This document shows positions 2,324 through 49,357 of a stretch of DNA of 64,000 nucleotides, one piece after another; position 1 is the stretch's first letter; the number at the start of each line of letters is the position of its first letter. Position numbers and translations under genes: made by a program. A model generated the notes under the pieces. The model was given only the letters and a program-made list of their open reading frames with translations. It did no database searches and was not told the DNA's origin. Source of the DNA: a virus (taxonomy: Duplodnaviria > Heunggongvirae > Uroviricota > Caudoviricetes); the IMG/VR virus record IMGVR_UViG_2706794662_000007. One strand, given 5' to 3'.

Positions 2324-2574
2324 CTGCGCTCGATATTGGCATTGATGAAATCCAGGCGAAGAGACTCCATCGCCCCTACCATGACATACGGGCGCCCGCC
2401 GTTATGCCAGCAATCAAGAACACTGCCGTCGTTGTTGATCATCAACAGCGCCAGGCTCTGGCTTTTTCCTTCTCTGGCGTGCTGAAGTGCTTCTTCCAGC
2501 AGGCGGATGACTTCCACGTTGTTGTTATCAGTCTCTTTCGATGGCTTCAGCTCTACGATCTTCAAATCAGGCAT
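2320..2574 (-). CDS. hypothetical protein
   Basis: 84 aa ORF, coupled to flanking genes by overlapping start and stop. Confidence 0.4.
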   Translation of the reverse strand: MPDLKIVELKPSKETDNNNVEVIRLLEEALQHAREGKSQSLALLMINNDGSVLDCWHNGGRPYVMVGAMESLRLDFINANIERR

Positions 2575-3205
2575 ATTCCACCTTCACGCGTTCTTTGTAG
2601 TGCTTGGTGATCTGCATATCCGGGCGCAGCGCGTTCTTCAGGTCTTCGTGAGTCGTCGCCACCATTACCGTCGCACCAACCTTTCGAGCGGCACGCTGGA
2701 GGTTAGACGCCACAACCTGAGCGGTTACACGGTCTAGAACAGCGCCGAACTCGTCAGCAGCCCATACTTTAGCGCCTGACTCAATCAGTTTGGCAATCTT
2801 GAGACGATATTTCTGGCCGTCTGACATTTCAGAAGGCTTGCGAACAAACAGATATGCATCGTTCAGACCAGCCATAGATAACAACCCAAGCGCATCACTG
2901 GTCGTTTTGCCCAACTGATCGATGACGTTAACCTCATTATCGAAGGTAAAATCATCGATGGAGGCTACAGACAGCCCTTCATCCTTCATCTGTCGTTGCA
3001 ACTCGCGCAGCACAACGGATTTGCCGGAACCGGATTGGCCGGTGATGTACACCACATCGCCCTGCTTCACTTCCAGCTCCAGATTGTCGTAAAGCGTCCA
3101 CTCTTTTTCGTCCAGGCCAAGCCCGAACGACTCAGCGATTTCCAACGTGCGCGTGGTTTTATTTACGCGTGTCTGAAACGATACGTTGATGATGTATTTG
3201 CTCAT
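2567..3205 (-). CDS. standalone ABC-type ATPase (nucleotide-binding domain only)
   Basis: Walker A GQSGSGKS, ABC signature MSDGQKYR, Walker B VWAADEF, H-loop ATTHE; only 212 aa and no transmembrane partner nearby. Confidence 0.7.
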   Translation of the reverse strand: MSKYIINVSFQTRVNKTTRTLEIAESFGLGLDEKEWTLYDNLELEVKQGDVVYITGQSGSGKSVVLRELQRQMKDEGLSVASIDDFTFDNEVNVIDQLGKTTSDALGLLSMAGLNDAYLFVRKPSEMSDGQKYRLKIAKLIESGAKVWAADEFGAVLDRVTAQVVASNLQRAARKVGATVMVATTHEDLKNALRPDMQITKHYKERVKVEYA

Positions 3206-3870
3206 GCAGCCATCTCCCCGGAAGAGATTTTCTCCGCATATGCCACAAATGCGTCTACCCCGCTTTCTCCCGTCATTTCTTCCATGTGGGCAAGCAAATC
3301 ACCAACAACAATGGCAGAGCCAGCAGGAAGCGTTTTAAAGCCCAATACGTCGACAACACGTACTTCTTCCGCTGCAACTTCACGACTGATCTCGGTGTGT
3401 TCATCCTTCTGTCGTTTAGTTTCTTCGCCAAGATCGATAACTAGCGAGTCGGTGTCCATTTCTTCTGTCATACTGCCAACGAGAACATTCAACTCACGCT
3501 CTTCGAAGCCGAAAACCTCGATATCGTCCAGAACAAGCGACTCAAGCTCTTTCTGTAGCTTAATTGCATCGTAATCAATGCTGGCAAGTCGGTTATCTTC
3601 AAGGCGCTTCGCACGAACCTCGTCATCACTGAGATCATCGCGAACAATAACCGGTACACGCTCAAGTCCAGCAAAAATTGCAGCCTCACGACGGCCGTGG
3701 CCAGTAATAATTACGTCGTTCTTATCGACCGTAATTGGCTGGTCAAATCCGCGCTTTTTAATGGCTGCGGCCAGATCTCTGATCTGCTGTTCATCATGCT
3801 TTTTGGCATTCATCTCATAGGGAATAAGATCTGCCGGGTCGCGATATACGATTTCAAACTTTTTGGTCAT
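3202..3870 (-). CDS. ParB N-terminal domain (ParB/Srx-like nuclease fold) protein
   Basis: ParB-NTD motif ITGHGRREAA; start moved to internal ATG (M12 of track ORF) that overlaps upstream stop as TAATG with GGAG ribosome-binding site. Confidence 0.65.
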   Translation of the reverse strand: MTKKFEIVYRDPADLIPYEMNAKKHDEQQIRDLAAAIKKRGFDQPITVDKNDVIITGHGRREAAIFAGLERVPVIVRDDLSDDEVRAKRLEDNRLASIDYDAIKLQKELESLVLDDIEVFGFEERELNVLVGSMTEEMDTDSLVIDLGEETKRQKDEHTEISREVAAEEVRVVDVLGFKTLPAGSAIVVGDLLAHMEEMTGESGVDAFVAYAEKISSGEMAA

Positions 3871-4568
3871 TACATACGCTCCTTGTAGTAGTCGACCAGC
3901 CACACCAGAGCCTCACCAGCGTTCTCCATTTCATTACCGGTGTTAATAGCCTGCTCTTTGATGATGTTTTTTATGGTTTCTGCAACACGATCTGACGCAT
4001 CGAAAGTTACTTTGAAGCGCATGGTCTGATGTTCCGCCCCCACACGTTCGGTTTTCTCTCGTTTGTCGGTATCGACAGGCTCATCACTACCACGAGACAA
4101 CGCCTCCAGTGCTTCAAGGTCGATTGCCGCCTCTTTTGCTAAAACCATCGAGATTTCGTCGTCATACGGGGCGATTTCAGACAGTTGATAGTCAAGTTCT
4201 GACTGAATTTCTTCAATGAAGCGTTGCAATGCGATTTGGTCGTCTTCACCGTATCGCTCGTTGTCCACCAGTGACATCTGTTTAGCTACGACATCGCTAA
4301 TTTTGCCCACAGAAAGCACTGGAACCGTTGAAATTCCTTGCTCAATAGCGGCACGCCAGCGATGTTCGCCGCCGAGGATTTCAAAAAATCCATCTTCAAG
4401 TTCACGAGCCAAAATTGGCTTAAAAAAGCCCAATTTTTCGATAGAACCTTTCAGTTTTTCGAAATTCTGCGCACCAACCGAATTGGTGTTCCAGGTATTC
4501 GGGCGAAGGTTGGCAACATCAACCTGCAAAATCGTGATTTTTACGTCCATTTTATTGCTACAATCCAC
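3870..4568 (-). CDS. ParB N-terminal domain protein (paralog of neighbour)
   Basis: ParB-NTD motif ILGGEHRWRAA; first gene of leftward operon; motif B upstream at 4567-4589. Confidence 0.65.
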   Translation of the reverse strand: MDCSNKMDVKITILQVDVANLRPNTWNTNSVGAQNFEKLKGSIEKLGFFKPILARELEDGFFEILGGEHRWRAAIEQGISTVPVLSVGKISDVVAKQMSLVDNERYGEDDQIALQRFIEEIQSELDYQLSEIAPYDDEISMVLAKEAAIDLEALEALSRGSDEPVDTDKREKTERVGAEHQTMRFKVTFDASDRVAETIKNIIKEQAINTGNEMENAGEALVWLVDYYKERM

Positions 4569-6654: not shown

Positions 6655-7248
6655 ATGAAACGTTCGTTACTTCTTGCTTGTATATACCTCTCGTCATTTT
6701 CCGCCAATGCGTTGTCAGATATCGTCTCCGACATGCAAAAAACGTACAGCATGTATACTTCTGAAGACGTACTAAAATACGAATCACGAGGTCTGATTCA
6801 ACCAGTCTGGTTCAGATTCTCAGATAACGCAGAAGAAACAATACTTAATGCAGGAAAAGAAAGATTACGGTTGCAAATTAACGGAACCGCTGTACCAGAA
6901 AACGTTAATGTAAGCTCTGACGAAGCCATGAAGCCATCTGGAATTGTTTTGGAAGTTCAAGACGGCACACTTTACTGTGATGAAATGGCTACAACAGGTT
7001 GCCAAGTAAACATTAGGGTTGGCAATGAAGAGCCTATCGTTACTTACGCCAAGGCTGAAGGGAATACAAGTGGAAAGGTATTGTTTATCGATGAAAATAC
7101 CTCAAAACGTATCGTTCGTGACATACAGAAAACAGCGAACTCTAAATCCGTCGATAAAAAAATCTATGTTGAGGTTCCCTTCTTTGTCGTTGGTAACAAA
7201 GAATTTAAATTTGGGTTGCTGAAAACACCTCTAAGAGTATCAGAATGA
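6655..7248 (+). CDS. secreted protein with cleavable signal peptide (hypothetical)
   Basis: N-terminus MKRSLLLACIYLSSFSANA; in AT-rich island; stop overlaps next start (ATGA). Confidence 0.5.
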   Translation: MKRSLLLACIYLSSFSANALSDIVSDMQKTYSMYTSEDVLKYESRGLIQPVWFRFSDNAEETILNAGKERLRLQINGTAVPENVNVSSDEAMKPSGIVLEVQDGTLYCDEMATTGCQVNIRVGNEEPIVTYAKAEGNTSGKVLFIDENTSKRIVRDIQKTANSKSVDKKIYVEVPFFVVGNKEFKFGLLKTPLRVSE

Positions 7249-7766
7249 GAACATTGGACATCACCTACGGCATACCGGCTGAAGTATGGCCGCGAGACTA
7301 CGAACATGCTGAACGTACCTTGCTCTTCTGGCGGAGTGCAAAATTTCCTGTAAGAGTCACTCTCGAAGACGGCCAAGTGTTTTGCATGTATGTCTACGGG
7401 CTATTGAGCGCAAGAAATAAGCTGAACCTCACACCAGATCCGCTTAGCAACACAAATCGTATAAGGCTCCCTCTTGAGCGCATTAGCACAATTGAGTCGG
7501 GCATAGAAGAGGTTGACACTTCATTCACAGGTCGACTAACGCTAAACAATGAACAGATGGTTAATCAGCCATCACGTCGTGACTTTTTTAAGATATGTCG
7601 TCAGGCTTACCAAAACGGCAAATCTATAAGGGTCTACATGGCAGACGGTCGCGAAATTGAGGGAACGTCAGATGGCGTTGACGCCTGTCTAGTCACACTT
7701 AAGTTGGAAGACGGTAGAAAAATACTTATTTTCTTCGATTGGGTTGAACGAATCCTTCCGTTTTAA
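7245..7766 (+). CDS. hypothetical cytoplasmic protein coupled to secreted protein
   Basis: 173 aa ORF overlapping upstream stop. Confidence 0.5.
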   Translation: MRTLDITYGIPAEVWPRDYEHAERTLLFWRSAKFPVRVTLEDGQVFCMYVYGLLSARNKLNLTPDPLSNTNRIRLPLERISTIESGIEEVDTSFTGRLTLNNEQMVNQPSRRDFFKICRQAYQNGKSIRVYMADGREIEGTSDGVDACLVTLKLEDGRKILIFFDWVERILPF

Positions 7767-9579: not shown

Positions 9580-9843
9580 NNNNNNNNNNNNNNNNNNNNN
9601 NNNNNNNNNNNNNNNNNNNNNNNNNNNNNNNNNNNNNNNNNNNNNNNNNNNNNNNNNNNNNNNNNNNNNNNNNNNNNNNNNNNNNNNNNNNNNNNNNNNN
9701 NNNNNNNNNNNNNNNNNNNNNNNNNNNNNNNNNNNNNNNNNNNNNNNNNNNNNNNNNNNNNNNNNNNNNNNNNNNNNNNNNNNNNNNNNNNNNNNNNNNN
9801 NNNNNNNNNNNNNNNNNNNNNNNNNNNNNNNNNNNNNNNNNNN
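9580..9843. other. N-run (masked or unresolved sequence)
   Basis: 264 consecutive n. Confidence 1.
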
Positions 9844-10324
9844 ACACGCCATCAAGGATGTGGATGCGGTTGCTTGCGTATACATTCAGCATAAAGTTAG
9901 CGCAAAACAGTTTCCATGTATCAACGCCAGCGGTATACGTAATGTTTTTGCATTTAATTGCATTGTTGGCGATCCGCATCCCCTGCGATACTGCTTCATC
10001 GTCGGAAAATTTGAACGACGATTGAGTTTTAATCCAGACAGAAATCTGCGTAGCGAACTCAATCAGCTTGGACTGGCAGAATCGCCCGGAGCGCACCGGA
10101 AAGACGAACGTTCCGAATCCAGAATTTACCACATACGCTTTCTCAAATACCCGCGAGTAACGACGATTGCCAATGATGTCGCGTGCAATAATGCATTTTT
10201 CTTGTGCTGACAGTTCTACCGTCTCATTGTCGCGCCATGCACCAAGTACTCGTTTTTCAATGTCAGAGAACGTTACAGCGATATTGCCATGTGCGGGTGC
10301 GTTTACAGTAGCGATAAAATTCAT
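9844..10324 (-). CDS. hypothetical protein, 3' end lost in N-run
   Basis: ORF starts MNFIATVNAPAHG at 10324; motif A at 10343-10360 upstream; true stop unknown. Confidence 0.4.
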
Positions 10325-10674
10325 GATTAATTCCTTATCGTAAATAACAAATTGTTTTCTTGTTGGCGTTAATTATCGTTGTACGAATAAGGCGTCAAAG
10401 TGGAAAGTTGCGGTAGCCGGACGGGAACAGGTGGGTTTGTCGGTTGCCTGGAGGTAAGAGGTTGGTGTTTTTAGCCTGCGGGAAACAGGATGGTCATTTA
10501 AGGCCACCAGCAGTGGTGGCCTTAATAATTATCGACCGATTACGCTAAGGATCTTTTCCTCAACTGATTTGTTGTTGCGACTAAACTGCCTTGCGTATCT
10601 GATGACAGAAGAGGCGTTTTGCTTTCTGACTATCTCGGCTCTTTCCTTCAGGCGTTTCTTGAAATCGCCCATAT

Positions 10675-11049
10675 TTACCACCAGGCGCAGAAGGTCAGTC
10701 TGTTATTGTGAAAGTCGTGGTTCTTAATCAGCTCTTCCACAAGTTTTTTCAACTCCCCCACGTCATGCCAGTACCCTTCATCGTACTCCTGACTGCCGAA
10801 GAAAAAACCTTCACAGGTAGGTAAGTACTCTTCGCAGTTACTTTCGTTCATGTGCATCAAATGAGCTTTCAGAGCACAAATGTCATTCATCGTTAATTCT
10901 AAAAGCTCACAATTTTTGACTTCACCTACGTTGCGTTCCATCCACCCAAAGAGAGCATTGAACTTACGGAAGTAAGCAACCTTCTTTCTGGATGCATCGT
11001 TATTCAGATCGTTTTTTGGTTGCGTCTCAATGTAGATATCAAGTCCCAT
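10675..11049 (-). CDS. hypothetical protein
   Basis: 124 aa ORF; motif A at 11107-11124 upstream. Confidence 0.45.
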   Translation of the reverse strand: MGLDIYIETQPKNDLNNDASRKKVAYFRKFNALFGWMERNVGEVKNCELLELTMNDICALKAHLMHMNESNCEEYLPTCEGFFFGSQEYDEGYWHDVGELKKLVEELIKNHDFHNNRLTFCAWW

Positions 11050-11126
11050 GATGGTTTCCTTATCAAGTTGCTTTCAGTGAAAGCATTTTCACAAATCAGA
11101 TAAGGCAGAAAACAAATTGTTATCGG

Positions 11127-11147
11127 GCATAAGAAAATGGCGCGGTT
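11127..11147 (-). terminator. terminator hairpin
   Basis: atggcgcggtttacgcgccat followed by T-run on minus strand. Confidence 0.55.
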
Positions 11148-11167
11148 TACGCGCCATTCAAAGAGGA

Positions 11168-11575
11168 TTAAGCGAATACGCTTTCAGGGATTAAGGTGTC
11201 AGCAGGAATGCCGGAGGTAATGCGCAGACCATACTGACCAATCCAGGTAGTGTTAGTGTTCAGACTGGAAGCGAATACGGTGTTAACCATATTCATCATG
11301 GTTTCAAACACCTCTTTATTCACCTTACGGAAGTAACTTTCAATTTTCAACAACAACGGGTCCGTTGCATCAAAAATGGACTGATATTGCGCCTCATATT
11401 CCCCGCCTGATGTATCTCCTTTACGCACAATAGTACTTGCCTGAACTTCAGTTCCAGTTTCGGTGTTGTACGTAACGACGGTGATTTTAGCTACATTCTT
11501 ACCTTCGGCGCTTTCTGAAGCATAGTAGACATCAACTGTCAGGTTTTCTCGTTTAACGCTCATATCACTCTCCAT
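11168..11575 (-). CDS. hypothetical protein
   Basis: 135 aa ORF. Confidence 0.45.
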   Translation of the reverse strand: MESDMSVKRENLTVDVYYASESAEGKNVAKITVVTYNTETGTEVQASTIVRKGDTSGGEYEAQYQSIFDATDPLLLKIESYFRKVNKEVFETMMNMVNTVFASSLNTNTTWIGQYGLRITSGIPADTLIPESVFA

Positions 11576-11632
11576 AGTGTCTTGGTTATTTTTCTATTTT
11601 ATAGACATAGGTATGTACTTACAATACAAAAA

Positions 11633-11651
11633 ACCCCGTAAGGATGGCGGG
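11633..11651 (-). terminator. terminator hairpin
   Basis: ccccgtaaggatggcgggg followed by T6 on minus strand. Confidence 0.55.
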
Positions 11652-11688
11652 GCTGTCGTACTGTCGACTAATTACCACTTGCACATTA

Positions 11689-12000
11689 TCAGGCTATTGC
11701 CATCACTGATGCTCTCTGAATCTCTTGCTGGGCCACGCGGTTAACTTCCATCAAAGCCAGTTCGAGCTGATGTTCCGGCCACATTCTTTGAAATGCCATC
11801 CAGCCTTTTCCACGCTGGCGACGAACATTCATTACATAACGAGTAAAGGTGTTTTTATCGAAAGACACCGCTGTTTCACGGAACAGACGAATAGAGGTTC
11901 CATTGGCAACGATGTCCAGCAAAGTTAATTGAGCAACCAGTGCAGGCTTCTCTTTTCTCTTCTGGTCTTTGTCCAGACCAAGAACCAATGATTTTTTCAT
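11689..12000 (-). CDS. hypothetical protein
   Basis: Start set to internal ATG (MKKSL) with GGAG ribosome-binding site; motif A 13 nt upstream. Confidence 0.45.
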   Translation of the reverse strand: MKKSLVLGLDKDQKRKEKPALVAQLTLLDIVANGTSIRLFRETAVSFDKNTFTRYVMNVRRQRGKGWMAFQRMWPEHQLELALMEVNRVAQQEIQRASVMAIA

Positions 12001-12154
12001 CACAACTCCGTAAACAACTTGTTTTCTCAATGGCGTAAATAATACCAGTAAGAAAACGGCTACAAAGCATATTGATCAGGCGCATGAGCGATATGCAGGT
12101 TCTTCCCTGCGGCTACAGATGAAGTTAAGCCAGCAATGCTGGCTTTGGTTGGGC

Positions 12155-12484
12155 TTACGCGAATATCGCAAGGAAGTCCTGAACGTCCCAATGCTGGACG
12201 AGGTGAAGATAGACCTTAGAAATCACGTCATTTTCGCTATCGCATGTGAAGTAGTACTTCTGGCTGCGGTTGTATGTGTCCACACAAAATTCGCTCATAT
12301 CCATAAAGTCAGCATCTTCACCCATGTCGCAAATCATCAAAGCAGGTGCGTCATCACGAGTCATCAGCTCCAGCACCCATCTTGAATTAATCAGAGTGGA
12401 AGACCAACCTTCCAGCTCATAAAACTGGTCAAACTCTTTTTGAGTCAATTTCTTAATTTGGTTGATGTCGATATTTGCAAACAT
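12155..12484 (-). CDS. hypothetical protein
   Basis: Start set to MFANIDINQ; upstream region is a near-duplicate of that of the 11689-12000 gene. Confidence 0.45.
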   Translation of the reverse strand: MFANIDINQIKKLTQKEFDQFYELEGWSSTLINSRWVLELMTRDDAPALMICDMGEDADFMDMSEFCVDTYNRSQKYYFTCDSENDVISKVYLHLVQHWDVQDFLAIFA

Positions 12485-12622
12485 AAAGCAATCCTTAAAC
12501 ATGTTGTTTTCTGAATTACGTAAACAATACCAGTAAGAAAACGGCCACAAAGTATATCGTTACGGTGCTGCGCTGCCCCGAGGTTAATAGCGACAAAAGC
12601 CACCGTGCTGGTGGCCTCACTC

Positions 12623-12841
12623 TTAATCTTGGTCGTCCGGGAACTCGCTGTGTACCGCGCCCACCAGCTCCCGCTTTTCATCTTCACTCAGCAGGTGCCA
12701 GATATCCTTCCCTTTGGGCGATTCCCCTTCTGCCGGGACGAACGACCACAACTTGCGGTACAACTCCGGCCCCACTGCATCCAGACACTCAGCCAGGGAA
12801 TCCACGCCCCACACCTCAACCGTCACAGGCATCTTAATCAT
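12623..12841 (-). CDS. hypothetical protein
   Basis: 72 aa ORF followed by hairpin. Confidence 0.35.
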   Translation of the reverse strand: MIKMPVTVEVWGVDSLAECLDAVGPELYRKLWSFVPAEGESPKGKDIWHLLSEDEKRELVGAVHSEFPDDQD

Positions 12842-14412
12842 CTCTTCATCCTCACTTCGTTTCTATAACGTCTAAATATGCTGTTTACTTGTTGGTGTTA
12901 TTATCGCAATAAGATAAAGGCGAAAAAGGATTTTATGTCGGGAAAGCCAGGCTGGGCAGTGAATATCCGGGAACGACACGAGAGCCAGTATTTACGATAT
13001 TCTGCTCTACGCGCGCCGCGGGGCTGGTGGGTAGAATAATCCTCTCCCCGAAAACCTACTGAAATCGATTGTGACCCGCTGGCTGTCTGGCACAATTACG
13101 CTGTATCTGGCATTCAGAGGGAATCCAGCGGTAAGCAAGTCAGCCTGCACGTGAGCGCCTCTCTTCTTCCCGCACATTACAGGTGGGTAGCTGCAACTCT
13201 CTCTCTCTCGCTATACCGGTACGCCGCCGTTCCAGAACCGGCATCGAGCCTTTTCCCGAAATCCACACAGGCAACTCGACCGTTTCCCTGAAAATCCCCA
13301 GCCGTTCCCCCGAAGGCAACCCAGCCGTTTCTGTAGCTGGATGCAACCTTTTCCCTGTATGGACCGAAGGCTGACCGTAGGGGGTGTTACGGGGGATAAA
13401 ATCAGGAGTTGAATAAATACGAAAAAGGAGGCGACCCCCCTCCTTCCCTCTCCACTTATACATACCTGGCTTCTTCGCTATACATGTTGTGTTTTATCTG
13501 TCTCAACCTCTCTATAGGCGTTAATGCTCACTCCTTCCAGAATGTTCTATACGGCGACTATTTCTGTTGGTGAATTGGGTGTGTTGTTTTCTCTGTCGGT
13601 GTATGTGGTTTCGTTAGTTTTGCGGTGGTTCTTCTATGGGGGTGTTCTCGTCGTTTTGGTGATTGTTCTTCTCCGTGTATGGAGTAATGGCAGGTGGGCG
13701 ATTGCTTTCGTTATTGTGTTTGAGTTGTTTGTCTGGAGTGTGTGAAGGCTTTTGTAGTTATTCGTGTATTGGGTAATGGCGTTTCCCGTGATTGTTATGT
13801 TTCGTGTCTTTTGGGATTGAGAGAAACCTTGCGGTTACAGGCTTCGTTAGGGTTTCAGCGGTTCAGGTGTTTCTTCGCTGTTTGGGTAATGGCGTGTCGT
13901 GGGTATCGCGCGTATGAATGTTTTCGGATTGCCTGTGAAAGTTAGGTTGGTTGTCCGGTAGCCTGGGGAGAAGAGGTGGGTCTTTTCGGTAGCCTGCCAT
14001 AAAGAGGTTGGTTGTTTTGGGTAATGGCATATGTGTTATTTGGTTGTTTTGTTATGCCTGAAAATAAGTTGTTTATATGGTTGTGTAACGCAACGGGAGC
14101 GATTTTGAGCGTGTGTTTTTGTTGGTAGTGTGTTGAGTCGTCTGTGGTGAAATTTGGACGCTGTGGCGCTATCTGCTGCGTAGAATTACGGGTATAAGAA
14201 GTGATGTGTGATAACGTCAATTTTTTAGACCAAATCGGGAGAAAGCGTTGATGTTTCGTTGATCTGTTATTTAGTTGTTTTCTTATTGGTATAAACAACC
14301 ATAACCTATTGATATTTAATGATGTGATTGCTGGTATGGGAGGGTAGTAGTGGCGATCAACGGGTTCTTATAGAAAAGAATCAAATTGTGACCGCCATTA
14401 TCAACGGTTTGA

Positions 14413-14598
14413 TTAGATGAGATGGTCTAATTCATCATCTATCATGGCTTTGACGCTGGAGTCGTTCACTCCATATTTATTTATGAGCTGTTTCAGCTCT
14501 GTCGAAAACTGAAGGTAGATATCGTGAGCGTTTTTCACTGTAGGTTCAACGCCACTCATTTCAAGCGCCTTTAGTAGATATGAGTCTTCTTTAAGCAT
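14413..14598 (-). CDS. hypothetical protein
   Basis: 61 aa ORF. Confidence 0.35.
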   Translation of the reverse strand: MLKEDSYLLKALEMSGVEPTVKNAHDIYLQFSTELKQLINKYGVNDSSVKAMIDDELDHLI

Positions 14599-15095: not shown

Positions 15096-17034
15096 TTACT
15101 TAACCTGGTGGCCAGGTTTAGCACCAGCATCCGGGCTTAACAGGAAGATATCTTTCCCGCCAGGACCGGCAGCCATCACCATGCCTTCAGAGATACCGAA
15201 GCGCATTTTACGTGGTGCCAGGTTAGCCACCATAATGGTGTGACGACCAATCAGTGCCTGTGGATCTGGATAAGCGGAACGGATGCCTGAGAAGACATTA
15301 CGCTTTTCACCACCGAGATCCAGCGTCAGGCGAAGCAGTTTGTCAGAACCTTCGACAAACTCCGCGTTTTCAATCAGCGCCACACGCAGGTCAACTTTGG
15401 CGAAGTCGTCAAAGGTGATGGTTTCCTGAATCGGTTCGTCAGCCAGTGGGCCAGTTACCGGTGCAGCTGTGGCTTTCACTTCTTCTTTGGATGCTTCCAC
15501 CAGTGCTTCCACCTGTTTCATATCGATACGGTTATACAGTGCCTTGAACGGATTCACTTTATGGCCCAGAAGCGGTTGCTGGATACCATCCCAGGTCAGT
15601 TCTGTATTCAGGAATGCTTCTGCACGTTCAGTCAGTTTCGGCAGTACCGGTTTCAGGTACGTCATCAGCACGCGGAACAGGTTAATGCCCATAGAGCAAA
15701 TCGCCTGCAGATCTGCATCGCGACCTTCCTGCTTCGCCACCACCCACGGAGCCTGTTCATCGACATAGCGATTAGCCAGGTCAGCCAATGCCATGATTTC
15801 ACGGATAGCTTTACCAAATTCGCGGCTTTCCCATGCTTCGCCAATCACTTCAGCGGCATCAGTAAAGGTTTTGTACAGTTGCGGGTCAGCCAGTTCGCTT
15901 GTCAGCACGCCGTCAAAACGCTTGTTGATAAAGCCTGCATTACGGGAGGCCAGGTTAACCACTTTGTTCACGATATCGGCATTCACGCGCTGAACGAAAT
16001 CTTCCAGGTTGAGATCGATATCATCAATGCGCGAAGAGAGTTTCGCAGTGTAGTAGTAACGCAGGCTGTCAGCGTCAAAATGATTCAGCCAGGTGCTGGC
16101 TTTAATAAAGGTGCCGCGAGACTTGGACATCTTCGCGCCGTTCACCGTCACATAGCCGTGAACAAACAGGTTGGTCGGCTTGCGGAAGTTGCTGCCTTCC
16201 AGCATGGCAGGCCAGAACAGACTGTGGAAGTAAACGATATCTTTGCCGATGAAGTGGTACAGCTCGGCGGTGGAGTCTTTCTTCCAGTATTCGTCGAAGC
16301 TTACGCTGTCGCCGCGCTTGTCGCACAGATTCTTGAAAGAACCCATGTAGCCAATCGGCGCGTCCAGCCAGACGTAGAAATATTTGCCCGGCGCGTTCGN
16401 NNNNNNNNNNNNNNNNNNNNNNNNNNNNNNNNNNNNNNNNNNNNNNNNNNNNNNNNNNNNNNNNNNNNNNNNNNNNNNNNNNNNNNNNNNNNNNNNNNNN
16501 NNNNNNNNNNNNNNNNNNNNNNNNNNNNNNNNNNNNNNNNNNNNNNNNNNNNNNNNNNNNNNNNNNNNNNNNNNNNNNNNNNNNNNNNNNNNNNNNNNNN
16601 NNNNNNNNNNNNNNNNNNNNNNNNNNNNNNNNNNNNNNNNNNNNNNNNNNNNNNNNNNNNNNNNNNNNNNNNNNNNNNNNNNNNNNNNNNNNNNNNNNNN
16701 NNNNNNNNNNNNNNNNNNNNNNNNNNNNCTCTTCGCTGTGCGTCGAGTGATAGTTGTCATAGCTGATGTTAAAGCCTGCGAAATCAGTCTGATGTTCCTG
16801 ACTCATTTCGCCAATCATCTGTTCCGGTGTGATACCAAGCTGCTGTGCTTTCAGCATGATTGGCGTACCGTGGGCATCGTCGGCACAGATGAAATTAACC
16901 TCGTGGCCGCGCATTCGCTGGTAACGAACCCAGACATCAGCCTGGATGTGCTCCAGCATATGGCCGAGGTGGATTGAGCCGTTAGCGTACGGCAGCGCGC
17001 ACGTCACCAGAATTTTCTTCGCGACTTGGGTCAT
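15096..17034 (-). CDS. metG: methionyl-tRNA synthetase (interrupted by N-run 16400-16728)
   Basis: Start [29 protein letters not shown] (HIGH-type motif) and C-terminus ...[24 protein letters not shown] match E. coli MetG as I recall it; the two flanking ORF fragments are in different frames because of the N-run. Confidence 0.95.
16400..16728. other. N-run inside metG
   Basis: 329 n. Confidence 1.
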
Positions 17035-17191
17035 AGTAGGCATTACTTCTTTGTAGTGAAAAGGGGCTTGATAGTAACAAAATGGCCTTATGTCTGCCAT
17101 GTGATAACAGCATTTCTCATAAATGATTAAATGTCGTAGCTGGAGTACACTACAAGGCGACAATTGCGCAAATTAAAATAAAGGAGACGGG

Positions 17192-18292
17192 ATGAGCGAG
17201 TCCAAATCGCCGGATGCCCTGAGAGCAATGGTAGCCGGTACGCTGGCTAATTTTCAGCACCCAACCCTGAAACACAACTTGACTACGCTTAAAGCGTTAC
17301 ACCATGTTGCGTTGATGGATGACACACTGCATGTCGAACTAATCATGCCTTTCGTGTGGAATAAGCCTTTTGAAGACCTGAAAGAGCAATGTAGTGGTGA
17401 TCTGCTCCGTATCACTGGCGCAAAGGCTATTGACTGGAAGCTGTCGTACAACATTGCCACGCTTAAGCGCGTCAAAAACCAACCAGGCATTAATGGCGTT
17501 AAGAACATTATCGCCGTCAGCTCAGGCAAGGGCGGCGTGGGTAAATCCTCCACAGCAGTAAACTTGGCACTGGCTTTGGCTGCTGAAGGTGCGAAAGTTG
17601 GTATTTTGGATGCCGATATCTATGGTCCATCAATTCCAACCATGCTGGGCGCGGAAAACCAACGTCCAACCTCACCGGACGGTACTCACATGGCACCTAT
17701 CATGTCTCATGGCCTGGCAACCAACTCTATTGGTTATCTGGTCACCGATGACAATGCAATGGTGTGGCGTGGACCGATGGCGAGCAAGGCGCTGATGCAG
17801 ATGTTGCAGGAAACACTGTGGCCTGATCTGGACTATCTCGTTCTCGATATGCCACCGGGCACTGGTGATATTCAATTGACGCTGGCGCAGAACATTCCTG
17901 TAACTGGTGCGGTTGTGGTAACTACGCCGCAAGACATCGCGCTGATCGATGCGAAGAAAGGCATTGTGATGTTCGAAAAAGTCGAAGTGCCGGTACTGGG
18001 TATCGTTGAAAACATGAGTGTGCATATTTGCAGTAACTGCGGTCATCACGAGCCAATTTTTGGCACCGGTGGAGCACAGAAACTGGCCGAGAAATACAAC
18101 ACGCAGTTGTTAGGCCAAATGCCACTTCATATCTCTCTTCGTGAAGATCTGGATAACGGAACACCAACCGTTATTAGTCGTCCAGATAGCGAATTTACGG
18201 CTATTTATCGTGACCTCGCAGATCGCGTTGCTGCCCAAATGTATTGGCAAGGTGAAGTAATACCTGGCGAAATCGCATTCCGCGCAGTGTGA
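17192..18292 (+). CDS. apbC: Mrp/ApbC Fe-S cluster carrier ATPase
   Basis: 366 aa; deviant Walker A AVSSGKGGVGKSST and CxxC (CSNCGH); divergent from metG as in the E. coli chromosome. Confidence 0.95.
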   Translation: MSESKSPDALRAMVAGTLANFQHPTLKHNLTTLKALHHVALMDDTLHVELIMPFVWNKPFEDLKEQCSGDLLRITGAKAIDWKLSYNIATLKRVKNQPGINGVKNIIAVSSGKGGVGKSSTAVNLALALAAEGAKVGILDADIYGPSIPTMLGAENQRPTSPDGTHMAPIMSHGLATNSIGYLVTDDNAMVWRGPMASKALMQMLQETLWPDLDYLVLDMPPGTGDIQLTLAQNIPVTGAVVVTTPQDIALIDAKKGIVMFEKVEVPVLGIVENMSVHICSNCGHHEPIFGTGGAQKLAEKYNTQLLGQMPLHISLREDLDNGTPTVISRPDSEFTAIYRDLADRVAAQMYWQGEVIPGEIAFRAV

Positions 18293-47495: not shown

Positions 47496-47570
47496 ATATC
47501 CACAGGATAGATCCTAATAAAGAGATCCATAGATAGATCCTTATATAGATCAAATAAGATCCCCGATCGC
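47496..47570. promoter_or_regulatory. origin elements: DnaA-box-like site plus cluster of GATC-containing heptamers
   Basis: atatccaca (8/9 match to TTATCCACA) followed by five AGATCC/AGATCA repeats and cgatcg, immediately upstream of the iterons. Confidence 0.6.
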
Positions 47571-47608
47571 TGTAAGCCGCGCCACGACTGGTCTGAAGTC
47601 ATGTTCAT

Positions 47609-47710
47609 GTATGCTGTCAGCGGTAATTGATAGTCTGTCAGCGGTTCACCGTATGCTGCCAACTGTTTTTGGTATTCTGTCAGCGGCAAATCAAGTATGC
47701 TGTCAGCGGT
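47609..47710 (+). repeat. five upstream iterons, consensus (g)tatgctgtcagcggt
   Basis: Copies at about 47609, 47632, 47651, 47674, 47695, ending 21 nt before the repA ATG. Confidence 0.85.
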
Positions 47711-47730
47711 TGAATGACAAAGGTGTCCAC

Positions 47731-48825
47731 ATGTCCACAAAAAATAAAAAAGGTAAAAATAACAAAGAAGTAGAAGATAACATCGACAACTTTGAAGAAG
47801 GTTCCCTTGAATTGTACACAGGGGAACTTGTCCCTAATAGCAACAATACAGTCCAACCAATTGCGTTGATGCGACTGGGGTTGTTCGTCCCCACGCTTAA
47901 GGGAACAAAATACAGTAAACGTAACAAGCCAAATGAGATCGATGCTTCAAAGGAGCTTGTCCAGCTCGAAGTAGCCCGTTCTGAAGGCTATTCCGATATC
48001 AAGATAACCGGTCCTCGTCTCGACATGGATCATGATTTCAAAACGTGGGTGGGCGTTGTGCGTTCGCTGGCAGAATACGGCGAACCTAACGGTCGTGTCG
48101 AGTTAAGCATCACGAAATTTGCTAAGTTTTGTGGCTATCCATCGTCACAGATCCGCAAAACACTCCGCGACCGGCTTACAAACAGTCTTTTGAAGATCAT
48201 GCGTACAACTCTGTCTTTCCAGAGAACGTATGAAGAAAAGAACGTCGACGGCTCTAACAAGATCTCGCTTCTGATGGTGCACCTCATCAATAGCGTGGAC
48301 TACAACGAGCAGAAAGATACGGTGGTGTTCTATGCAGAACCGAAGCTGGCCGAACTATATCGCTTTGACCATAAGGTTCTTTTGCAGTTAAAGGTTATCA
48401 ATAAGCTACCACGCAAAGAAACAGCACAGGCTCTGTACACCTTCATCGAAAGTCTTCCAACCAAGCCTGCGCCGGTATCGCTTGCTCGATTGCGTGCGCG
48501 ACTCAATTTGAGTAGCAGGAATGTCAGCTCGCAGAATCAGACTATACGTAACGGCTTAAAAGCTCTCCAAGATTTGGGCTATCTCGAATACAGCGAGATT
48601 AAGCGTGGGCGGTCGATCTATATCCAGATTCACAGCCGCAATCCAAAACTCAAAGTCGCACCGCCAAAACCTGAAGACATCGAACCCAAAAAACCAGATG
48701 AGAAAGCTGGGGAAATTGATGCCAAACAGAACATTATCAACAAGATAACCGAACTTTCGCAGAATTTGACGCCTGAAAATATCAAGATGATTGAGATCCT
48801 TTCCAATAGTCTCAAACTGCTTTGA
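47731..48825 (+). CDS. repA: iteron-binding replication initiator RepA (P1-type)
   Basis: NSNNTVQPIALMRLGLFVP...GYSDIKITGPRLDMDHDFKTW...ALYTFIESLP...IHSRNPKLK resembles P1-family RepA as I recall it; start set to MSTKNKK (M41 of track ORF). Confidence 0.85.
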   Translation: MSTKNKKGKNNKEVEDNIDNFEEGSLELYTGELVPNSNNTVQPIALMRLGLFVPTLKGTKYSKRNKPNEIDASKELVQLEVARSEGYSDIKITGPRLDMDHDFKTWVGVVRSLAEYGEPNGRVELSITKFAKFCGYPSSQIRKTLRDRLTNSLLKIMRTTLSFQRTYEEKNVDGSNKISLLMVHLINSVDYNEQKDTVVFYAEPKLAELYRFDHKVLLQLKVINKLPRKETAQALYTFIESLPTKPAPVSLARLRARLNLSSRNVSSQNQTIRNGLKALQDLGYLEYSEIKRGRSIYIQIHSRNPKLKVAPPKPEDIEPKKPDEKAGEIDAKQNIINKITELSQNLTPENIKMIEILSNSLKLL

Positions 48826-49357
48826 TATGCTGTCAGCGGTGAAATGTATGCTATCAGCGGCTATTTTTCTGAAAAGTATGCTGTGAACGGTTAAAGATAT
48901 GCTACCAGCGGTATAGTGAGATGAACGTATGCTGTGAGCGGTAAATCATCTATCACCACTCAATGCTCTGTCATACCTCCCCAGTGGTTACTAACCTCGA
49001 AGAGTGCATTCCATATAGGTTTGCGCTCACTAACATTCTATTGCTATTGCGCTGATTGCTTGTAGTGAAAGGCATTTATTGCCTGCTACTCCCTGATAGA
49101 ACGTATGCTGTCAGCGGTGTTTTATTGAGGAATTTTTGTTTGGATATGCTATCAGCGGTAATTAATGGCATATGTCAGACATTCGTATGCTGCCAGCGGT
49201 AATTTTGTTCTGGTTATACCCATACCGGTACACATTATTCATGCAATGTCTTAAGTATGCTGTCAGCGGTAAAAAATCGAGTAAAGTATGCTGTGAGCGG
49301 TGAGATAGACTCTCGATATGCTATCAGCGGTAGTTGATTGTGTATGCTGTCAGCGGT
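48824..49357 (+). repeat. downstream iteron array (12 copies in two groups)
   Basis: tatgctNNcagcggt copies at about 48824, 48846, 48876, 48896, 48926, then 49103, 49143, 49184, 49254, 49285, 49315, 49341; all same orientation. Confidence 0.85.

Follow-up and report, generated by a model that had tools for sequence, protein, structure and literature searches.

Paired arrays of a bipartite 30-bp repeat in a phage-plasmid of the SSU5/pHCM2 type: candidate protein-binding sites of the early region

The 64,000-nucleotide stretch of DNA analysed here (the window; IMG/VR virus record IMGVR_UViG_2706794662_000007) carries copies of a short repeat at two separate loci, and the question raised by these copies is what molecule reads them and to what effect. 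A first-pass annotation had described two tandem copies of a unit of about 26 bp at each locus, and had proposed that they are iteron-like binding sites for one protein. In the present work it is found that each locus holds three units, that the units are conserved at the same two places in related elements, and that they are unrelated in sequence to the iterons of the element's plasmid replicon. The interpretation that is tentatively preferred is that the units are bound by a protein which the element itself encodes, and that the two arrays act on the transcription of its early region.

Each unit is composed of a short T-run, a first box (box 1, yCGGTAGCCTG), an 8-nt gap that is purine-rich and mostly has AAG or AAC at its end, a second box (box 2, AGGTKGGT) and a second T-run. 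The length of about 26 bp given previously is appropriate for the recognized part of the unit (box 1, gap and box 2), but not for its period, which is 30-31 bp in the window and 28-31 bp in relatives. A direct-repeat search of the window grouped four 30-nt copies, starting at 10408, 10438, 13953 and 13984, and the pattern CGGTWGCC-N10-AGGTKGGT is matched exactly four times (10411, 10441, 13956 and 13987) and once with two mismatches (13926), always on the plus strand. When up to three mismatches are allowed there are nine matches against 0.98 expected, a number reached in 0 of 100 shuffles. A weight matrix derived from the relatives detects exactly six sites in the whole 108,107-bp element, which score between 15 and 51 bits, whereas five shuffled genomes gave no score above 1.0. 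All six have the same orientation, and they fall into two groups of three, at 10408-10497 (locus A) and 13923-14012 (locus B):

10408-10437, plus strand: unit A1, with box 1 CGGTAGCCGG at 10411-10420 and box 2 AGGTGGGT at 10429-10436; exact match, 33 bits
10438-10467, plus strand: unit A2, with box 1 CGGTTGCCTG at 10441-10450 and box 2 AGGTTGGT at 10459-10466; exact match, 47.6 bits
10468-10497, plus strand: unit A3, degenerate, with TAGCCTG at 10472-10478 and box 2 AGGATGGT at 10487-10494; 15 bits
13923-13951, plus strand: unit B0, degenerate, with CGGATTGCCTG at 13925-13935 and box 2 AGGTTGGT at 13944-13951; two mismatches, 24 bits
13953-13982, plus strand: unit B1, with box 1 CGGTAGCCTG at 13956-13965 and box 2 AGGTGGGT at 13974-13981; exact match, 50.9 bits
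13984-14017, plus strand: unit B2, with box 1 CGGTAGCCTG at 13987-13996 and box 2 AGGTTGGT at 14005-14012, followed by a T-run; exact match, 41.6 bits

The presence of one repeated unit at two loci is thus borne out at a level far above that of shuffled sequence, while the count of two copies per locus has to be raised to three by the inclusion of the degenerate units A3 and B0.

Segment 10300-14400 of the window has 100% identity to the 108-kb Shigella sonnei plasmids LR213459.1 and NZ_CP053753.1 and 94-99% identity to the Escherichia phages CMS-2020a, PhiR41_1 and Cyrano, and part of it, a conserved core, is found also in Salmonella phage SSU5; these identities mark the window, by its sequence, as a phage-plasmid of the SSU5/pHCM2 type (family SSU5/pHCM2/pMT1), of which the complete element measures 108,107 bp. 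The family is that of a working phage, since Cyrano is reported to be induced 39-fold by ciprofloxacin in E. coli LF82 (PMC9928086). Homologous DNA is present in hundreds of plasmid records. The relatives fetched by homology are from E. coli (75% identity), S. Tennessee, S. Typhi (pHCM2), Enterobacter and Klebsiella (~68% identity in non-coding DNA); among the numbered loci, L005-L009, L110 and L111 were retrieved via homology, and most loci via the motif itself.

Conservation of the repeats in relatives, which the first-pass annotation had left to be checked, is observed: both arrays occupy the same two places in the elements from E. coli, Salmonella (pHCM2), Enterobacter and Klebsiella, and locus A alone is found in Yersinia pMT1/pFra. 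Of the 36 box columns of B1 and B2, 31 do not vary among the six lineages aligned (14 of 18 in B1 and 17 of 18 in B2), compared with 45% of columns in the whole non-coding region around locus B and 40-47% in the 100-bp flanks, so that the boxes are about twice as conserved as their surroundings; B0 is less well conserved than B1 and B2. At locus A the best conserved unit is A2, in which TCGGTAGCCTGGCGGTAAGAGGTGGGTGTTTT is nearly invariant among 54 distinct variants and which is intact in Y. pestis pFra. The columns of A3 are invariant over the six lineages, and its boxes survive the replacement of the downstream flank by other DNA (L063, L087, L059 and L074). A1 is in most relatives a diverged copy (TGGTGGCC..CGGAGGGT), and one copy in a large mosaic Klebsiella contig (L112) has a 3-nt deletion in box 1 of A2. 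The gap between the boxes is of fixed length in 336 of 364 detected units, its sequence differing from unit to unit, and the start-to-start spacing of the units varies between 28 and 31 bp. A rigid gap within units combined with a floating distance between them is what would be given by independent sites that are each bound by one protein.

A motif scan of IMG/VR returned 98 loci, of which 96 are homologous to the window region and the remaining two are chance matches in GC-rich coding DNA. The motif is a genuine, strongly conserved cis-element that is specific to the family. The DNA between the arrays is by comparison dispensable: it contains one small gene in L051 and L043, six in the window and nine in L111, and the distance between the arrays ranges from 1.4 to 3.6 kb, and yet in the relatives compared, pFra excluded, the arrays and the non-coding DNA around locus B are always retained. 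The exception is Y. pestis pFra/pMT1 (L110, NZ_CP154818.1), in which locus A is intact and locus B is absent together with its non-coding surroundings. In the stretch 7472-8340 of L110 a copy of IS1541 lies one gene to the right of locus A, and the genes that follow it are homologues of those at ~42-46 kb of the window; some 30 kb of early genes, with the non-coding DNA, have been lost in this IS1541-bordered deletion.

L111 is a distant relative, in which the homologue of the conserved 160-amino acid protein encoded beside locus A is 51% identical to that of the window. At its locus B the number of units is again three, spaced by 29 bp and each consisting of TGCCTG, 9 nt and GAGTGGTGTT (in one copy GGCGGGTGT), and locus A likewise has the lineage-specific box 2 GAGTGGTGTT. 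This 10-mer occurs three times in 14.5 kb of L111, exclusively at the two loci and on one strand, and the box 2 of the main lineage, GAGGTGGGT, was not found in the same 14.5 kb; GCCTG is retained in the L111 units. Loci A and B have thus drifted together in this lineage. The same change of box 2 at both loci points to a co-evolving reader that the element itself encodes; a host factor, whose specificity would be fixed, can hardly explain it.

The setting of the two loci was determined from the window and from the annotation of the identical record, in which the region has terminase and structural genes on its left and, on its right, a long leftward (minus-strand) series of genes for early functions, nucleotide metabolism and replication. 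The window is interrupted by seven N runs, of which that at 9580-9843 covers the 3' end of the gene adjoining locus A. The features that border locus A are the following:

9844-10324, minus strand: conserved gene for the 160-amino acid protein (PHROG 1641), downstream of locus A, with its 3' end within the N run
10345-10357, strand not assigned: operator-like palindrome TAACAAATTGTTT, just downstream of the promoter of the 160-amino acid gene; one AAACAANTTGTTT copy
10372-10398, minus strand: sigma-70-like promoter of the 160-amino acid gene (TTGACG, 15 nt, GATAAT), with the -35 hexamer at 10398-10393 and the -10 hexamer at 10377-10372
10500-10523, minus strand: terminator-type hairpin of the preceding leftward gene, with a 9-bp stem (RNAalifold)

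Read leftward, the order is the stop codon of the preceding small gene, the hairpin, A3, A2, A1, a 12-bp spacer and the promoter, beyond which follow the palindrome, a ribosome-binding site and the ATG of the 160-amino acid gene. Both promoter hexamers are kept in six lineages and the sequence between them is variable. The hairpin has a weak U-tract, and two of its stem pairs show compensatory changes (GGCCAC/GTGGCC becomes GGCCAT/ATGGCC in some variants). Locus A is accordingly not situated in the 5' leader of the 160-amino acid gene, where it had been placed before, but upstream of the promoter of that gene.

Locus B lies within a 1.5-kb conserved non-coding region, referred to below as the hub, whose main features are these:

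12842-14412, strand not assigned: conserved non-coding hub with locus B, 1.5 kb, no conserved open reading frame (ORF)
14062-14074, strand not assigned: operator-like palindrome AAATAAGTTGTTT, ~50 bp to the right of unit B2
14191-14220, minus strand: conserved leftward promoter (TTGACG, 18 nt, TATACC)

DNA homologous to the hub occurs in 839 plasmid records, hardly any of which annotate it. The hub contains, in order from the left, a Chi sequence at 13023, a set of 22-bp repeats, an AT-rich patch, a G+T-rich stretch, the three units, the palindrome at 14062 and the leftward promoter. The Chi sequence (GCTGGTGG, 13023-13030, plus strand) is perfect and is kept in four of six lineages. The repeats are five direct copies of the CCGTTTCCC type, (A/C)GCCGTTTCCC(T)G, at 13249-13360 with spacings of 30, 22, 22 and 22 bp, and they adjoin the AT-rich patch at 13395-13425; together (13249-13425) they have an origin-like layout, separate from the 30-bp units, that relatives have kept, L111 among them. 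In the following stretch, 13550-14300, the plus strand is extremely rich in G and T over ~750 bp (GC skew ~+0.5, AT skew ~-0.5) and contains four or five GGGTAATGGC words in one orientation; this skew is the strongest in the 108-kb element and is opposite in sign to that of the coding regions.

The leftward promoter keeps its hexamers and its 18-nt spacing in six lineages in which the spacer sequences are unrelated, and in L111 it reads TTGACA, 18 nt, TATACC. A transcript initiated here would traverse locus B ~170-260 nt downstream. CGTTGAT or CGTTGAC (ATCAACG) occurs about five times, in both orientations, at 14200-14415 around this promoter, one copy overlapping a GATC. A minus-strand intrinsic terminator at 13446-13421 was considered and set aside because it is not conserved in relatives. 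A minus-strand ORF of 118-122 codons covers locus B, but it is reduced to 60-105 codons in relatives, the hub alignment has gaps of unequal length over this stretch, RefSeq has no annotation there, and no ORF is conserved across the repeats; the ORFs placed over locus B in some phage records (as coding sequences in PhiR41_1 and Cyrano) are probably spurious, long ORFs of this kind being generated at 13550-14300 by a minus strand that is poor in stop codons. A truncated hub fragment (B1, B2 and the promoter region) is also found in L109 (K. pneumoniae NZ_CP050827.1, 6700-7470) and L112, where it sits in large IncHI1B/IncFIB Klebsiella plasmids adjoining a type I restriction-modification system; being a remnant truncated by an insertion sequence, it is uninformative as a comparison.

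The explanation that best accommodates this material, although its probability is put somewhat short of even, is that the arrays form a pair of protein-binding elements in a silent early/lytic control region and act on leftward transcription. Each unit would be a bipartite DNA site for a single sequence-specific DNA-binding protein encoded by the phage-plasmid, with box 1 and box 2 read at their fixed distance by two DNA-reading parts of one protein or complex, and three adjacent units would build a short nucleoprotein array. The two arrays, in the same orientation, stand in a leftward-transcribed early region that is silent in the lysogen: array A between the terminator of a small early operon and the promoter of the 160-amino acid gene, and array B in the untranslated leader of the conserved leftward promoter, at the entrance of the hub. 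Once bound, they may regulate leftward early transcription or give it an architectural framework, as a barrier, an insulator or a platform that may bridge the two loci, and they would take no part in plasmid maintenance. The unit arrays are in this respect a variation on the familiar theme of tandem protein-binding repeats. Of the earlier proposal, the idea of binding sites for one and the same protein is supported indirectly, by the conservation of the boxes, the fixed gap and the joint change in L111, and the sites remain predicted ones; the iteron-like character is not supported, the element having unrelated iterons of its own elsewhere.

That the reader is a protein rather than an RNA is inferred; no RNA structure, Rfam match or antisense partner was detected. 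The common orientation of the six copies and the conserved promoters that flank the arrays also count in favour of the preferred interpretation. With Rfam, nothing in the window passed the gathering scores, and relaxing the threshold to E<=5 for 10250-14450 brought up a chance match to a Trp leader alone. RNAalifold applied to 16 diverse locus-A sequences returned nothing but the neighbouring terminator hairpin, both strands of each array fold no better than shuffled sequence (z-scores of -0.9 to +0.7), and the search for an antisense partner of the units elsewhere in the element produced words at chance level only. The silence of the region in the lysogen is indicated by RNA sequencing of LF82 lysogens, in which CYRAN_103, the ORF over B1 and B2, has counts at the floor in each of the two LB replicates and does not exceed low values in any of the ten samples, and CYRAN_111, the 160-amino acid gene, is weakly expressed (PMC9928086 S1 Table). 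Counts at the floor imply that the site at locus B is not part of a lysogenic transcript.

The units appear to be separate from a second, more widespread signal. The palindrome AAACAAnTTGTTT has 15 copies in the window where ~0.5 would be expected (0.49 for AAACAANTTGTTT), the sites including 992, 1017, 10345, 11110, 12012, 12497, 14062, 14948, 14999, 18842, 28540 and 29269. In the early genes examined the copies are at or just downstream of promoters, and two stand upstream of the gene preceding that for the terminase large subunit. This palindrome is probably the general operator of the element, for a dimeric master regulator, and the 30-bp units would then belong to another, more specialized system. 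The operators of the C1 repressor of phage P1 offer a partial parallel: they are 17 bp long and asymmetric, overlap promoters, number more than a dozen and are sometimes in tandem. Like the units as interpreted here, they are non-palindromic sites of a phage-plasmid regulator, present at several loci, and they control lytic genes which the lysogen keeps silent; the units differ in being confined to two loci, neither of which overlaps a promoter, and in coexisting with the palindrome that looks like the general operator.

Several observations weigh against the interpretation of the units as sites of an element-encoded protein that regulates leftward transcription. Pfam and PHROGs searches of ten neighbouring proteins, one of them clearly of the FljA family, revealed no DNA-binding domain, the small neighbours having no significant Pfam match, and the predicted fold of the 160-amino acid protein, although confident, has no match and no recognizable DNA-binding character. 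In most relatives there are 7 bp more between A1 and the -35 hexamer, which changes the distance of A1 and A2 from the promoter; strict helical phasing is therefore not conserved, and this argues against an activator of the classical kind that acts from one face of the helix. A conserved sigma-70 promoter directly to the left of array B was not found in the six-lineage alignment. The conservation of the boxes is partly ascertained, most loci having been retrieved by the motif itself. The argument from concerted change is drawn from a single distant lineage, L111; a scan of genome contigs and a second scan of viral contigs yielded members of the main lineage only, and no further distant lineage was found. 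Finally, the strandedness of the RNA sequencing data is not stated in the source (PMC9928086).

The main rival, which is considered unlikely, is that the arrays are accessory (enhancer) sites of a lytic origin: an initiator or helicase loader would bind both arrays and loop the DNA, and replication would start in the hub. The five CCGTTTCCC-type repeats 22 bp apart (13249-13360) with their AT-rich patch are what such an origin might contain, the most extreme strand skew of the element lies beside them, a conserved promoter fires into the hub, the arrays are separated by 1.4-3.6 kb of dispensable content, and genes for a DnaB-like helicase, a primase, DnaE and RNase HI belong to the element itself. 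Yet no initiator gene adjoins the hub, locus A is devoid of origin-like features, and the part of the hub that resembles iterons consists of the 22-bp repeats and not of the 30-bp units. The absence of locus B and the hub from pFra/pMT1 also accords with a lytic origin, since pMT1 is not known to produce phage, but the deletion spans ~30 kb and says little about locus B specifically. A model for such an arrangement exists in phage P4, whose alpha protein, a primase-helicase, binds octamer repeats at ori and at the distant crr and loops the DNA. Two clusters of the same short repeat a few kilobases apart, acting in cis in an element akin to a phage-plasmid, would be the feature in common; the P4 repeats are octamers bound by alpha, however, whereas the present sites are 26-bp and bipartite with no initiator identified.

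A more specific proposal, considered improbable, is that the units are non-palindromic loading or anchor sites of a ParB-like heterodimer, with one paralogue on each box, and that the arrays delimit the early or lytic-origin segment and silence or fire it in the manner of a KorB-like long-range switch. Two adjacent genes for ParB-N paralogues at 3202-3870 and 3870-4550 (minus strand), 6-7 kb to the left of the arrays, are the sole lead on a binder, one product aligning to residues 23-171 of Spo0J and one weakly matching KorB, and the two subunits could in principle read an asymmetric two-box site. Box 1 (TAGCC; TTTAGCC in A3) also resembles the KorB half-site, TTTAGC, and regulators of the KorB type act from sites either upstream or downstream of promoters. 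Known sites of this class (parS, OB) are nevertheless palindromes of 13-16 bp, whereas the units are asymmetric, with boxes ~17 bp apart, and all lie in one orientation. The paralogue genes belong to an operon (2567-4550, minus strand) upstream of the terminase genes which also encodes a small ABC/SMC-like ATPase (2567-3205), is conserved in pMT1 and is separate from the ParA-like partition ATPase of the element.

It is likewise doubtful that the units act as RNA, in the form of an unstructured C-rich element on the leftward transcript that recruits a termination or antitermination factor or an RNA-binding protein; candidate sites of this type are Rho loading sites and boxA-like Nus sites. The arrays are placed where a leftward polymerase would pass (after the weak terminator at A, and ~170-260 nt beyond the promoter at B), and RNA of the minus strand would be rich in C and have next to no structure (-10 kcal/mol per 100 nt). 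Rho loading sites, though, are not normally conserved base for base, as the boxes are. The minus-strand form of box 2, CCACCUCUU(U/A), resembles boxA (GCUCUUUA) and the anti-Shine-Dalgarno sequence at the 3' end of 16S rRNA; its CUCUU core is gone in L111 (CACCACUC), despite the conservation of the host machinery. A FljA-family protein is encoded 2.6 kb away, FljA being an mRNA-binding, post-transcriptional repressor of phase-1 flagellin. The folding, covariation and Rfam results given above identify no conserved structure and no curated family to which the units could be assigned, and no transcript is detectable over locus B in lysogens in data whose strandedness is not stated (PMC9928086). 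A hairpin between box 1 and box 2 was also tried and rejected, since it amounts to a 4-bp GCCU/AGGU stem in which the W and K positions mostly mismatch, without co-variation.

A far less probable explanation is that box 1 functions in the manner of ops during rightward transcription, for which the plus strand would be the non-template strand, and recruits the host factor RfaH to RNA polymerase. The bases of ops needed for RfaH recruitment and pausing are C3, G4, G5, T6, A7, G8, T11 and G12, G2 being dispensable (PMC5995543), and every one of them is present in CGGTAGCCTG, that is in B1 and B2 of the window and in A2 of most relatives, so that in three to four units box 1 coincides with the functional core and the pause bases. 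The units that depart from it do so at critical positions: A1 has T11G, A2 has A7T and the middle unit of relatives has G4T, and substitutions A7T, T11G and G4C are reported to abolish or strongly reduce the effect of RfaH (PMC5995543). The six-lineage alignment contains no conserved plus-strand promoter upstream of either array, and the neighbouring genes are all on the minus strand, opposite to that on which ops would operate in the leader of a transcript. The conservation pattern is also another one, in that the two positions which ops leaves free are among those that are invariant in the unit (T, G, C, C), and in that locus B of L111 has TGCCTG without GGTAG, so that the core is not kept there; the units are moreover tandem, with a second box that ops does not explain, and no NusG/RfaH paralogue was found among the proteins of the element. 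An eight-base resemblance noticed after the fact is weak evidence, and it is at best a minor possibility if not a coincidence.

The same very low probability attaches to the view nearest to the original description, namely that the units serve plasmid maintenance as initiator iterons or as a partition centromere. Tandem direct repeats of ~20-30 bp in one orientation at two loci do recall the origin and incompatibility arrays of plasmids (incC/incA of P1, oriS/incC of F, and Rep3 replicons), in which, as here, one protein with two DNA-contacting parts would presumably read the units, and genes for ParA-like and ParB-like proteins are present in the element. A scan of the window for short-range direct repeats, however, singled out a different non-coding region, located at an initiator gene:

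47611-48825, plus strand: Rep3-family initiator gene (Pfam Rep3_N, E = 5e-9)

On one side of this gene are five GTATGCTGTCAGCGGT iterons with a spacing of 21 bp (47605-47710), and on the other a further ten copies (48821-49357); ahead of it, at 47498-47551, there are GATAGATCC/ATCCACAGG repeats resembling DnaA-box and GATC elements. Judged by this classic origin and copy-control layout, the region at 47.6-49.4 kb (47498-49357) is the true plasmid replicon of the element; no gene is entered for it in the PLSDB table, possibly owing to its position across the start of the record. The 30-bp units are 34-37 kb from the Rep3 gene, among small genes without an assigned function, and unrelated in sequence to its 15-20 iterons, they do not flank an initiator gene, and their spacing of 28-31 bp corresponds to about three helical turns and not to the two turns of the 21-22 bp that separate origin iterons. 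The same boxes occur unchanged in elements of different replicon types (rep_cluster_488 and IncFIB), and the weight-matrix scan of the whole element places no unit near the ParA-like gene. The deletion in pFra/pMT1 amounts to a natural experiment on cis-requirement: pMT1 is kept as a plasmid without locus B, so that neither replication nor partition of the plasmid requires this locus. On this sequence comparison the iteron or centromere reading is largely refuted.

If the units are indeed sites of a regulatory protein, the two arrays would be of practical use as the sharpest cis-element of the hub, from which a 90-bp bait for isolating the regulator could be made, and as an entry point to the plasmid-to-lytic switch. 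A search of the literature yielded no description of the 30-bp repeats or of the 1.5-kb hub, and nothing on how SSU5/pHCM2/pMT1-type elements pass from plasmid life to lytic growth. Phage-plasmids of this type occur commonly in clinical E. coli, Salmonella, Klebsiella, Enterobacter and Yersinia, and the family has been reported as a carrier of resistance genes (PMC9600943). Two corrections to existing annotation also follow, namely the removal of the probably spurious ORFs over locus B and the recognition of the replicon with its iterons at 47.6-49.4 kb.

Other genes in the element deserve brief mention. The FljA-family gene at 7245-7766 (plus strand; Pfam Flag1_repress, E = 1.4e-68) is conserved in relatives including pMT1 and L111, and its product might let the phage-plasmid switch off host flagellin. 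A full-length methionyl-tRNA synthetase gene, partly masked by N (16400-16728), lies with a gene for an ApbC/Mrp (MinD-like) ATPase at 15096-18292. The ApbC/Mrp ATPase gene is expressed at 9 times background in Cyrano lysogens, and CYRAN_43 (OV696614.1, 40268-40822), a hypothetical gene that adjoins the integrase and repressor genes and lies beyond the region analysed here, is ~700-fold over the prophage background (PMC9928086); it might be a highly expressed lysogeny gene or RNA.

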